The notes under the pieces: generated by a model
What the model was told of the DNA's origin: nothing
The model's database searches: none
The model's input: only the letters and a program-made list of their open reading frames with translations
Position numbers and translations under genes: made by a program
Source: an uncultured Poribacteria bacterium
Lineage (GTDB): Bacteria > Poribacteria > WGA-4E > WGA-3G
Reading direction: 5' to 3'
Length of the DNA stretch: 64,000 nucleotides
Assembly: GCA_951813565.1 (NCBI GenBank)
Contig: OX638351.1
Location: 4,480,001 to 4,544,000, forward strand
Shown here: positions 39,833-44,494 of the stretch, in pieces
How positions within the stretch are numbered: position 1 is the stretch's first letter
Layout of the letters: each line of letters starts with the position of its first letter

Positions 39833-40224
39833 CCATAACTGTCAACTTAAGAAAAAATGCTGGATATTCTCTTGTGGGAGGGGTTTTTAACCCCGATTTT
39901 GTGAGTCTTATAGTAAAATCCGAAAATATGTTCACATTTCAATGAACAGCAATCCCCACACGCTTGCGCTGGCGAGGTTTCCTAACCTCGCAAATGTAAA
40001 GGTAATTGTGATTTTTACTATAACTTGTAAAATCGGGGTTAAAAACCCCGATTTTCTTCTGTAGGAGCGACCTCCCGGTCGCGAGCTGGAGCTCGCTCCT
40101 ACAGAATGTCCGAGGCGACAAGTCATGGCGAATACCACGCGTATTCGCCCAAGTGCGCTTGGCGTTGATTTGGCAATGAATTGCGCGACTACAAACGCTT
40201 TTTTTCTTAAATTGACAGTTATGG
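39833..40224. mobile_element. Composite MITE with 25-bp terminal IRs (TGTCAACTTAAG family) containing nested palindromes and MITE
   Basis: ccataactgtcaacttaagaaaaaa / ttttttcttaaattgacagttatgg (1 mismatch). Confidence 0.7.
39909..40022. mobile_element. 114-bp TATAGTAAAAT MITE (inverted copy of 23214-23327)
   Basis: Sequence similarity and IRs; sits in loop of gggtttttaaccccgatttt/aaaatcggggttaaaaaccc palindrome. Confidence 0.75.
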
Positions 40225-40472
40225 AGCGGTTAGGAAACCGCTCCTACCGTCCGGAAAATGCGATAAATCCCGTTAATTTGGTATAATAACTGTATTTTCA
40301 ACTTCGGTTTTGAGTGCGTTGAGAATAGATGAAAAACGTGGCGCGTTTTCGAGTGCCTCAATACCGCCTTCCATGTCTGCGGCGTGGAGGAGTTGAAGTG
40401 TAAAATCTTGTGGAGTTTCTTGCGAGTTTAAATCTACTTCATTATCTTGAGAAAAGGCGGGAGTAAGAAAAA

Positions 40473-40770
40473 GTCATAGTGACCCACTACCTAAAGGCAG
40501 GGGCTTGTGCTTCGTAGCAGTTAGCGTTTCCGAAGAAGCGTCTTACATCTGCTCCACAGTGGCTGCTAAGCCAGCCACTTGCCCGAAGGCAACTTATTAT
40601 TTTTGACACGTGATTTTTCAAGCGGGTGAGCATTTTTCAATGCGTCTACCCTAAACGTGCAATAGATGTTACAAAGAACTTTAGCAGTATTGAATCGCAA
40701 GGCTTTTACCTGATTGTTTCACTGCCGAGCGGTCTACCACCACATCAATCAGAACCGATGCCGACTGCTA
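40473..40770 (-). ncRNA. Putative ~300-nt structured RNA ending in TnpB omegaRNA/reRNA-like 3' region
   Basis: Internal promoter; stems with GAAA and UUCG tetraloops; GTGGAG..GTAAGAC..GAAGCA.AAGCCCC 3' motif like tnpB right ends. Confidence 0.6.
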
Positions 40771-40775
40771 AAGAC

Positions 40776-40804
40776 AATATATCAAATTTTGGTGAAAGTG
40801 TCAA
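40776..40804 (-). promoter_or_regulatory. Near-consensus sigma70 promoter inside the PATE
   Basis: TTGACA-N17-TATATT on minus strand. Confidence 0.7.
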
Positions 40805-41195
40805 GGTTTTTTTGACACATAAACTGCTGAGCTGTCTACATCCCCTACCTAAAGGCAGGGGGTTTGACAGGGAGTGCTAAAACAGAAATTGAAAGAACAA
40901 CATACGTTAGAATAGTGACTCTCTTATTATACATCAGCAAATTCTCTCCTAATTCATCAAATCAAGTTTATAACAATTTTGGCAAACCTCTATATAGAGG
41001 CTTGAATATGGCAAAATTATGATACTTCAAAATTGTTGCAGGCTACTGCCACTATTTTGACTTTTTTGTGTTTATAGGAAGATGTATTTAGTATTGGAAA
41101 AGGACGTTTATAGTTCTTATAAAAGGAAATGTGTTTGTAGCATTCAGAGGGCACCTCACCCTGCAATCATATTGTTTGAGAATAATTCTAAATGC

Positions 41196-43367: not shown

Positions 43368-44207
43368 TTAAGACAAGTTTTTTTGCTCAAATTCCACAGG
43401 TGTCAAATACCCTAACGCTGAATGAGGGCGTTTGTGATTATACACTTGCGTAATAAAATGCCCAATGCGGGCTCTCGCTTCGTGGATGTTCTCATAGGCG
43501 TTGAGATGAACTTCTTCTTCCTTGAGCGTGCGGATAAGTCTTTCAGCATATCCGTTCTCCCAAGGACACCCTCTTCGGGCGACTGAAATCTCTATCCCAT
43601 GATACCTAAGCAGTGAGATATACGCATCTGAAAGATACTGAACGCCTTGATCAGAATGATGGATCTCTGGAACACTTTGACATAATGCTGTCTCTAAGGG
43701 TTTCAACGCCAGAGATTGCGTCAAGTGTCGACTGATATGCCACCCCCTGATCATGCGAGTGAAGACATCCATGAGCAGACAAACATAGATGAAGTGTCCT
43801 TTGAGACGGACGTAGGTAATATCGCCTACCCAGACCTGATCACATCGGGAGACATCAAGGTTTTCAAGGCGATTACCCCAGGGACGCACACCCGCAACGG
43901 ATGTCGTGGTTTGACAGACACGTTTGACAGAAACCGAGAGGTTGGCGGATTTCATCAATCGGGCAACACGCTTATACCCGATGGTGTATCCGCCACGCAC
44001 TAACAACTGTGTGATACGTCTATATCCGTATGTTGGATATAGCAAAGATAACTTCTCTATTTCATCCCGGAGGCCCGCTTCACACGGGTCCTGCTTGGGG
44101 TGATAATAGAGATTGCTTCGGTTGAAACCGAGCGTCTCACATATCTGCCGAACCGAAAAGTCTATCCGTAATGCTTCAACCATTTCTCGCTGCTCCATCG
44201 GGGTCAA
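43368..44207 (-). CDS. IS3 transposase OrfB (rve DDE integrase domain)
   Basis: YGYRRI, WVGDITY, HHSDQGVQY, WENGYAER, YNHKRPHSALGYLTP. Confidence 0.93.
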   Translation of the reverse strand: MTPMEQREMVEALRIDFSVRQICETLGFNRSNLYYHPKQDPCEAGLRDEIEKLSLLYPTYGYRRITQLLVRGGYTIGYKRVARLMKSANLSVSVKRVCQTTTSVAGVRPWGNRLENLDVSRCDQVWVGDITYVRLKGHFIYVCLLMDVFTRMIRGWHISRHLTQSLALKPLETALCQSVPEIHHSDQGVQYLSDAYISLLRYHGIEISVARRGCPWENGYAERLIRTLKEEEVHLNAYENIHEARARIGHFITQVYNHKRPHSALGYLTPVEFEQKNLS

Positions 44208-44494
44208 CTCAAGTAAGTTGAGGCTTTTTTTTGGATGTCAAGTGCCAGGGTCAACCGCCCAACGAGTTGCTCAAGTTGGGCGATCCGATCCGCAGAGGCA
44301 TCAGACTGTTTATCAGCGGGTTCAAAGAGGGTCGCCGCATTTTCAAGAAGCTGTCGCTTCCACTTTGAAAGTTGTTCATCGCTGAGGCTATGTCGCCGAC
44401 ACACTTCTGCTTGGGAACTTTGACCGCTCAGTGCCTCAAGAACAACTTCGGCTTTAAACTCGGGAGTGAAGTTTCTTCGTTTTCGTTTCGCCAT
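44204..44494 (-). CDS. IS3 transposase OrfA (HTH_Tnp_1)
   Basis: RRNFTPEFKAEVV, QLSKWKRQ, LEQLVGRL. Confidence 0.92.
   Translation of the reverse strand: MAKRKRRNFTPEFKAEVVLEALSGQSSQAEVCRRHSLSDEQLSKWKRQLLENAATLFEPADKQSDASADRIAQLEQLVGRLTLALDIQKKASTYLS

Follow-up and report, generated by a model that had tools for sequence, protein, structure and literature searches.

A conserved pseudoknotted RNA domain at the predicted 5' end of a stand-alone omegaRNA element from a sponge-dwelling Poribacteria bacterium

The element and its insertion site

The window, which is the whole stretch of 64,000 nucleotides that was analysed, comes from a sponge-dwelling, uncultured Poribacteria bacterium and carries on its minus strand a 404-bp element without a protein gene (40876-40473), whose longest ATG-started open reading frame (ORF) comprises 48 amino acids. 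The genome contains five identical copies, each at a different site, and a relative that shares 73% identity and has another left end. All five copies have the target tetranucleotide TTAG, the predicted TAM, directly outside the element (40877..40880, minus strand). The left end (40832..40876, minus strand) is 92-98% identical to left ends of the TnpB elements of the genome, and it includes the guide AAAC (40865-40862) and a subterminal hairpin that can be read from the sequence (40861-40842); the right-end hairpin (40503-40484) lies inside the omegaRNA scaffold. Among the 32 paired ends of the genome, 21 elements with a TnpB ORF have ends that match those of the 404-bp element, including the subterminal hairpins. 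Moreover, excision of 40473-40876 in silico generates an in-frame host ORF without target duplication. This interrupted and shortened ORF (40278..40934, minus strand, joined in frame across the element) presumably encodes a signal peptide and an N-terminus resembling a metallophosphoesterase/5'-nucleotidase. Genes for TnpA and for several TnpB families are located at other places in the genome (five tnpA matches and many tnpB matches, named by NCBIfam). Thus, the matching ends, the clean in-frame excision and the TnpA and TnpB genes elsewhere identify the element as an IS200/IS605 PATE. In the passages compared, the published PATEs and stand-alone omegaRNA elements likewise lack an ORF, have IS605 ends and a right-end omegaRNA, are multicopy and depend on TnpA and TnpB in trans (10.1101/2023.03.14.532601; PMC10691335). 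The occurrence of other flanks around the PATE in public contigs is, together with the five scattered copies, an indirect sign of mobilisation by TnpA in trans.

The ends of the PATE are chimeric (40473-40880): the left end belongs to a TnpB family with the target TTAG, and the omegaRNA is closest to a TnpB family with the target TCAT. For the guides of the five copies, no convincing second target was found in the genome (12 nt with at most one mismatch gave three matches over four TAMs). The window also contains a repeat element that is bounded by 28-bp inverted ends and has palindromes inside (39833-40224), which adjoins the truncation of the host ORF and has a very high depth in a public run, and an insertion sequence with two ORFs (43368-44494) that we take to be IS3-like.

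The predicted promoter and transcript

A sigma70-type promoter, TTGACA-17-TATATT with a TG, matches 11 of 12 consensus positions (40776..40804, minus strand) and places the predicted transcription start at 40769, 1 nt ahead of the first helix. The predicted transcript has a length of about 300 nt and is highly folded (z -2.9). It would start with a structured domain of about 86 nt (domain 1; 40683..40768), followed by domain 2 (40606..40660), which consists of a GCACGT/ACGTGT stem, a GGG/CCC stem with an internal loop and an apical hairpin, a layout that is kept in the homolog alignment and folds. Hairpin 3, TTGCC-TTCG-GGCAA (40579..40592), which has other stems in the homologs, directly precedes the omegaRNA core. 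The TnpB omegaRNA scaffold ending with TGAC (40473..40578, all minus strand) shares about 80% identity with the 3' ends of four of the tnpB elements in the genome. According to the omegaRNA layout described in the consulted part of a study on ISDra2, the host flank 3' of the right end would serve as the guide (40457..40472, minus strand; PMC10097598).

Domain 1 homologs were retrieved and parsed from 119 distinct loci, and two partial matches were dropped. In 115 loci, a sigma70-like site precedes the domain in 87 and the motif AAAC-N15-17-CGTCT, which we assume to be ECF-like, in 17, giving 104 of 115 loci with a promoter-like site at fixed spacing (shuffled null of 3.9% and 0%, respectively). 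The sigma70-like site ends 7 nt before helix P1a in 64/87 loci and the ECF-like site 9 nt before it in 14/17 loci; from these spacings it follows that the two promoter types converge on one start. The ECF-like motif lies ahead of the cassette in L054, L055, L102, L104-L107, L109, L110, L112, L113, L115, L119, L120, L132, L142 and L215, and it was not found beside a sigma-WD40 cluster. Contigs assembled from RNA reads (three libraries, one study) extend over the element and the left end upstream of the promoter, a kind of evidence that cannot resolve strand, ends or the absence of DNA.

The fold of domain 1

An earlier sequence-only reading of this locus had proposed a structured RNA domain from the single sequence. 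All the strings that it quoted lie at their place on the minus strand and its fold equals the minimum free energy structure, which alone is within the range of chance (z -1.57, with 19 of 200 shuffles folding equally well). The support comes from the homologs, of which 65 distinct sequences were used for counting pairs in an alignment that was fitted to the nested helices only and not to the pseudoknot. P1 (P1a: GCAG 40768-65 with TTGC 40700-697; P1b: a GGC/GCC stem) is paired in 97.9%, P2 (40752-46 with 40716-10) in 98.8% with two-sided changes at 6/8 pairs, and the apical hairpin P3 (40743-29) in 90.5% with two-sided changes at 4/5 pairs. Covariation thus confirmed the inner GGC/GCC and CTGATTG/CAATCAG stems and the apical hairpin of the earlier reading. 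Furthermore, it revealed a pseudoknot helix between GGCAGT (40726-21) and ACTGCT (40688-83), which is paired in 89.5% with two-sided changes at 5/6 pairs, and a 3-bp extension of GAA (40720-18) with TTC (40694-92), paired in 97.9% with two-sided changes at 2/3 pairs (all minus strand). Slid controls reached 35-45%, and the compensatory changes span two genera. The pseudoknot was also recovered free of the alignment in 104 sequences, with L046 and L057 omitted owing to a deletion and an insertion: 37 distinct internal segments gave a mean of -8.4 kcal/mol with their own 3' tail and -4.3 with tails of other types. Shuffle tests are inflated by the kinship of the sequences, but the independent strand pairs are many and include GCAGT/ACTGC, GTCGT/ACGAC, GTCAAT/ATTGAC, GATATT/AATATC and ACAAGT/ACTTGT.

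The outermost helix of the earlier fold, a 10-bp stem said to start near the predicted transcription start, had to be abandoned. Its first four nucleotides (40773-40770) are close to the predicted start at 40769 and lie upstream of it, and the stem is paired in 56.9% over the 65 distinct homologs, which is chance level (153 of 500 shuffles as high), with two-sided changes at 0/8 pairs in the same-genus set. In the 104 sequences, the alignment-free energies of this stem are -5.1 kcal/mol with own and -4.4 with foreign partners. The 3' ACTGCT instead closes the covarying pseudoknot with the internal GGCAGT-GAA, and the source clade can form the outer stem only owing to the likeness between its 5' end AGCAGT and the pseudoknot strand GGCAGT. 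Since the outer stem is a stronger duplex than the pseudoknot in 27 of 104 sequences, including the source copy, it is a possible alternative fold in the source clade. The idea of a second guide loop gained no support either, as the variable segments covary with each other in the pseudoknot and not with the flanks.

Among the 104 sequences, whose pairwise identity is 53-100%, 41 positions are at least 95% conserved, and the near-invariant positions include the unpaired internal loop AUNGGUU/GUAAAA between the stems. A linker of 2 nt connects the base of P1a with the pseudoknot, the partner strand of which sits at the top of P2, and the helix stack would therefore have to fold back. Variants in which GTAAAAG is changed to GTCCAAG were not counted as support for pairing, since changes of a similar kind, AA/AG to CC, turn up repeatedly at other places of these elements. 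Recurrent GTAA/GTAG-to-GTCC substitutions at unrelated positions were noticed in many copies, namely in L044, L055, L060, L061, L260 and left ends of the source genome.

The fold could also act in single-stranded DNA during peel-and-paste transposition, or be a functionless relic. In the IS200/IS605 family, the transposed strand is the strand bearing the domain 1 sense. However, domain 1 begins exactly at the predicted start of two promoter types and the compensatory changes continue across two genera, which makes these two explanations extremely unlikely.

The boxA-like motif

The earlier reading had likened GTTCTTTGTAAC (40668..40679, minus strand) to rrn boxA and had suggested Nus-dependent antitermination. 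The string is present, but it is not conserved: it occurs with at most one mismatch in 29 of 116 loci, all of one genus, and is better read as a short hairpin. In most lineages, the position is a covarying hairpin of 3-5 bp, such as GTTAC-TTT-GTAAC, GCC-TTCG-GGT, ACCC-TTTC-GGGT or GGGA-TTTTT-TCCC, and one large clade has an unrelated linker there. The likeness of the 12-mer to rrn boxA is therefore superficial; rrn boxA is a conserved single-stranded 12-mer, with which the count of 29/116 loci and the hairpin variants do not agree. Matches to a boxA-type sequence with at most two mismatches number 1455 in the genome, and the start of a 16S gene was not found there with a primer sequence. The host possesses genes for NusB and Rho, but nothing in the data points to the use of Nus factors by the leader.

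Antitermination through Nus and boxA, or through an RNA of the put/EAR type, would carry the RNA polymerase through the untranslated element into downstream genes. The promoter-proximal position, the Rho and NusB genes and a same-strand ORF downstream of all five copies in the source genome would fit such a role. However, the motif is confined to certain lineages and most lineages have paired bases in its place, the predicted transcript is only about 300 nt long and highly folded, and the downstream ORFs across genomes are without strand bias, as they lie on the same strand in 17 cases, on the opposite strand in 15 and are missing in two (n=34, with a crude ORF caller). We thus consider antitermination to be very improbable.

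Distribution and module swapping

BLAST detected domain 1 homologs in 15 of 36 genomes of the same genus, and the covariance model in 46 of the 99 family genomes, compared with none of 51 genomes of eight other families. A broader model gave no full match in 24 genomes of other families and nine further genomes of the same genus. The domain was also not found in five single-contig genomes of the genus, and it is therefore not a housekeeping RNA. In a pattern scan covering up to 80 loci, each of the 22 true matches listed carries the title Candidatus Poribacteria, and none of the 58 listed loci from outside Poribacteria contained a homolog (best E 0.75). No real homolog was found in viral contigs (0 and 2 pattern matches) or phages (three 29-nt matches at E 0.7) and none in plasmids; the single metagenome match is the same element. 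Two weak model matches (L226, L227) look like chance by sequence. In the genomes searched, the cassette is hence found in one Poribacteria family only, and in the source genome the model finds only six PATE copies.

In the homologs, a second stem domain and then a small hairpin come after domain 1, and the omegaRNA behind them could be assigned to one of the classes A, B and C in 109 of the 115 loci with enough downstream sequence. No tnpB or tnpA match was obtained in 58 loci tested by tblastn, and in the remaining loci the omegaRNA leaves no room for tnpB. Of 13 loci examined for the second omegaRNA class, 7 have it immediately behind tnpB, and a class-B homolog yields a score for the Rfam family HgcC that falls short of the gathering cut-off. 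In a tree built from 95 domain 1 sequences, the omegaRNA class changes 13 times with a minimum possible of two; the tree has few columns and weak resolution, and the supported branches force at least 6-8 changes, involving classes A and B. Moreover, the left-end targets of 84 parsed loci are TTAT, TTAA, TTAG or TCAT and define four types. The class changes and the four left-end types show that the cassette moved between elements, or that omegaRNAs were swapped behind domain 1, and that the cassette was kept.

Such module swapping, the own promoter and the two conserved domains would also be expected of an independent cargo sRNA comprising domains 1 and 2 (about 170-190 nt), which TnpB trimming would release to act for the element or the host; indeed, processing of 5' sequence by TnpB is described in the consulted part of a study on AmaTnpB (PMC10278001). 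However, domain 1 was never seen as a stand-alone locus, the few copies lacking an omegaRNA look truncated or nested and the distribution within the genus is patchy, so that a cargo sRNA appears distinctly unlikely.

Comparison with known RNA classes

Domain 1 has no match among the Rfam 15 covariance models, which yielded five weak chance matches, none within the domain. The hammerhead core consists of CUGANGA, stem II and then directly GAAA. Domain 1 has UUGAUG instead of CUGANGA and 8 nt between the hairpin and GAAA, and its GAGA, CAGA and GAUA variants pair in the pseudoknot. HDV-like ribozymes form a nested double pseudoknot (P1-P2-P3-P1.1-P4) with a catalytic C; here the covarying helices come in another order, with the hairpin 5' of the pseudoknot strand, and the knot does not enclose a P4. 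A kink-turn requires a 3-nt bulge followed by tandem G-A and A-G pairs, and the loop AUN GG UU / GUAAAA would form G-A instead of A-G as its second pair. Domain 1 also lacks the layout of a riboswitch, as an omegaRNA and not an ORF follows in 109/115 loci and there is no sense-strand terminator. A tRNA or tmRNA was likewise discarded, with none in the window and D-loop- and T-loop-like words that are not conserved, as was a likeness to the 5' end of group II introns, the first bases covarying with TTGC, ACAC or ATAC instead of being fixed.

The size, the compact pseudoknot and the invariant junction bases could nevertheless indicate a self-cleaving ribozyme of a new kind with a role in guide RNA maturation, and small ribozymes are common on mobile elements. 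However, the hammerhead, HDV and twister cores do not fit and Rfam gives no match, the RNA starts at its own promoter with nothing upstream to remove, and TnpB itself can trim the omegaRNA. A ribozyme is thus highly doubtful.

With the TnpB omegaRNAs, as far as these are described in the parts consulted (ISDra2, PMC10097598; AmaTnpB, PMC10278001; Rfam HgcC), the PATE transcript shares its 3' part of about 105 nt and the 3' guide. Only this part matches tnpB elements. Domain 1 is located 100-190 nt upstream of it and does not resemble tnpB 3' ends, and the pseudoknot that it contains differs from that of the omegaRNA. It neither overlaps with the tnpB 3' end in autonomous elements nor takes a position after it, which excludes an identity with the omegaRNA scaffold. 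The main proposal of the earlier reading, a distinct structured RNA domain in the place of tnpB, is therefore borne out by the covariation: the structure is conserved among homologs and matches neither an Rfam family nor the omegaRNA scaffold. From the published PATEs, the 404-bp element differs in that a promoter of its own and two conserved RNA domains precede the omegaRNA, a module not described in the passages compared. IStrons, in the part of the report consulted, are likewise IS605 elements carrying a structured RNA (10.1101/2023.11.20.567912), but here no group I intron of Rfam matched and the promoter is internal. Flaviviral exoribonuclease-resistant RNAs also form a compact pseudoknot at the 5' end, and such folds can block RNase J1 according to the consulted part of a study (PMC5760640). 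They differ from domain 1 in topology and origin and mark a decay stop, whereas domain 1 would sit at a primary start site; resistance of domain 1 would be a candidate property by analogy.

Possible functions of the cassette

The element is of a known kind and bears an undescribed, well-supported RNA domain with a putative function. No description of the module was found in the literature searched, which comprised mostly titles and abstracts; the omegaRNA model sets in the supplements of TnpB papers could hold one. The role of stand-alone omegaRNAs is called unknown in the consulted part of a previous report (PMC10691335), and the question addressed here is how they are expressed and persist without the tnpB mRNA that is normally cut for them. 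The cassette is a concrete and mutable candidate answer that comes with natural compensatory variants.

Our preferred reading, which we hold tentatively and regard as nearly balanced between right and wrong, is that domain 1 heads a portable promoter with a 5'-protecting knot, which lets the stand-alone omegaRNA survive until TnpB made in trans is loaded. Closing the knot across the 2-nt linker would force the stack to bend at the AUNGGUU/GUAAAA loop and bury the 5' end, which would shield the untranslated RNA from 5'-end-dependent decay by RNase J and RNase E/G, both of which are encoded by the host genome. The omegaRNA would then persist until bound by TnpB, which probably trims the leader, and the loaded complex, by cutting empty donor sites, would favour retention of the PATE. 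The burial of the 5' end and the protection, loading, trimming and homing steps are inferred by analogy with reports of which parts were consulted: stand-alone omegaRNAs act in trans (PMC10691335), TnpB trims 5' extensions (PMC10278001; PMC10097598) and folded RNA can block RNase J1 (PMC5760640). A difficulty is that, given the TTAG left end and the TCAT-like omegaRNA, homing would need cross-loading. The reading is favoured by the location of domain 1 at the predicted start, by its fold, by the omegaRNA behind it and by its retention as a swapped module. In favour of a role at the 5' end, an unrelated pseudoknot occupies the slot of the first nucleotides in several tnpB mRNA families and in another PATE family, and this recurrence suggests a need that is tied to the 5' end. 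Against it, the major 1368-bp tnpB family of the genome has no such leader, the 411-bp and 360-bp PATEs have no obvious promoter cassette and, in the part consulted, the omegaRNA of ISDra2 is functional without its own 5' region (PMC10097598). If the knot protects RNA 5' ends, it could be a compact stabiliser for guide RNAs.

A plain 5' hairpin might suffice for protection, and the 41 near-invariant positions may therefore mean protein or ligand binding or catalysis. As a scaffold or sensor, domain 1 would bind TnpB, TnpA, a host protein or a small ligand and thereby aid the capture of TnpB or tune its activity. The invariant unpaired bases (AUNGGUU/GUAAAA, GAU and AA) would suit this role, and the layout of a bent stack closed by a pseudoknot resembles several aptamers. 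Moreover, 5' mRNA sequence can regulate TnpB, as stated in the consulted part of a previous study (PMC10278001). However, the domain is combined with omegaRNAs of three divergent classes, which speaks against a contact specific to TnpB, neither an ORF nor a U-tailed terminator exists on the sense strand 3' of domain 1, and the alternative fold is limited to one clade (27/104). Binding is thus an unlikely explanation. A bolder reading, to which we give some but clearly the smaller part of our belief, is that domain 1 represents a new class of self-acting RNA fold, either a bacterial exonuclease-blocking knot or a ribozyme, at the core of a swappable promoter-plus-leader cassette that would convert any pair of IS605 ends with an omegaRNA into an element that expresses itself and parasitises TnpB, with an alternative (ECF) sigma factor acting in some lineages. 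If domain 1 cleaves or binds, it would found a new functional RNA class.

Other leaders and PATE families in the genome

The genome contains several tnpB families with a leader at the start site and a covarying pseudoknot (near 159990, 1388100, 1834432, 1844031 (L009), 2764436, 3777154 and 4626621 of G000:C1). These tnpB mRNA leaders occupy the same transcript-start slot as domain 1, belong to the same element family and have a similar size, but they have another helix order and no sequence likeness (model R2 found nothing in those loci), and they head ORFs, which domain 1 never did. One scanned tnpB leader had no match in Rfam, and no publication on these leaders was found. In several of them, the 3' strand of the outer helix is duplicated at the ribosome-binding site or the start codon, an arrangement that looks like a translational switch.

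A second PATE family (L052/L259, G000:C1:963518-963961, and L260-L288) combines a promoter, a pseudoknot of the tnpB-leader type, the linker CTTGTAAAACATC, a stem domain and an omegaRNA. In 22 of 60 genomes of the bacterial family, BLAST gave matches to it that vary in length. PATEs of 411 bp and 360 bp (L051 and L053; G000:C1:365561, 4985924, 4973348 and 1854061) carry another GC-rich and apparently structured cargo, for which no Rfam match was found, and one PATE of this type is nested behind domain 1 in L044/L063. Finally, folds of the tnpB-leader type or similar to it lie upstream of ORFs other than tnpB in L281 and L280.
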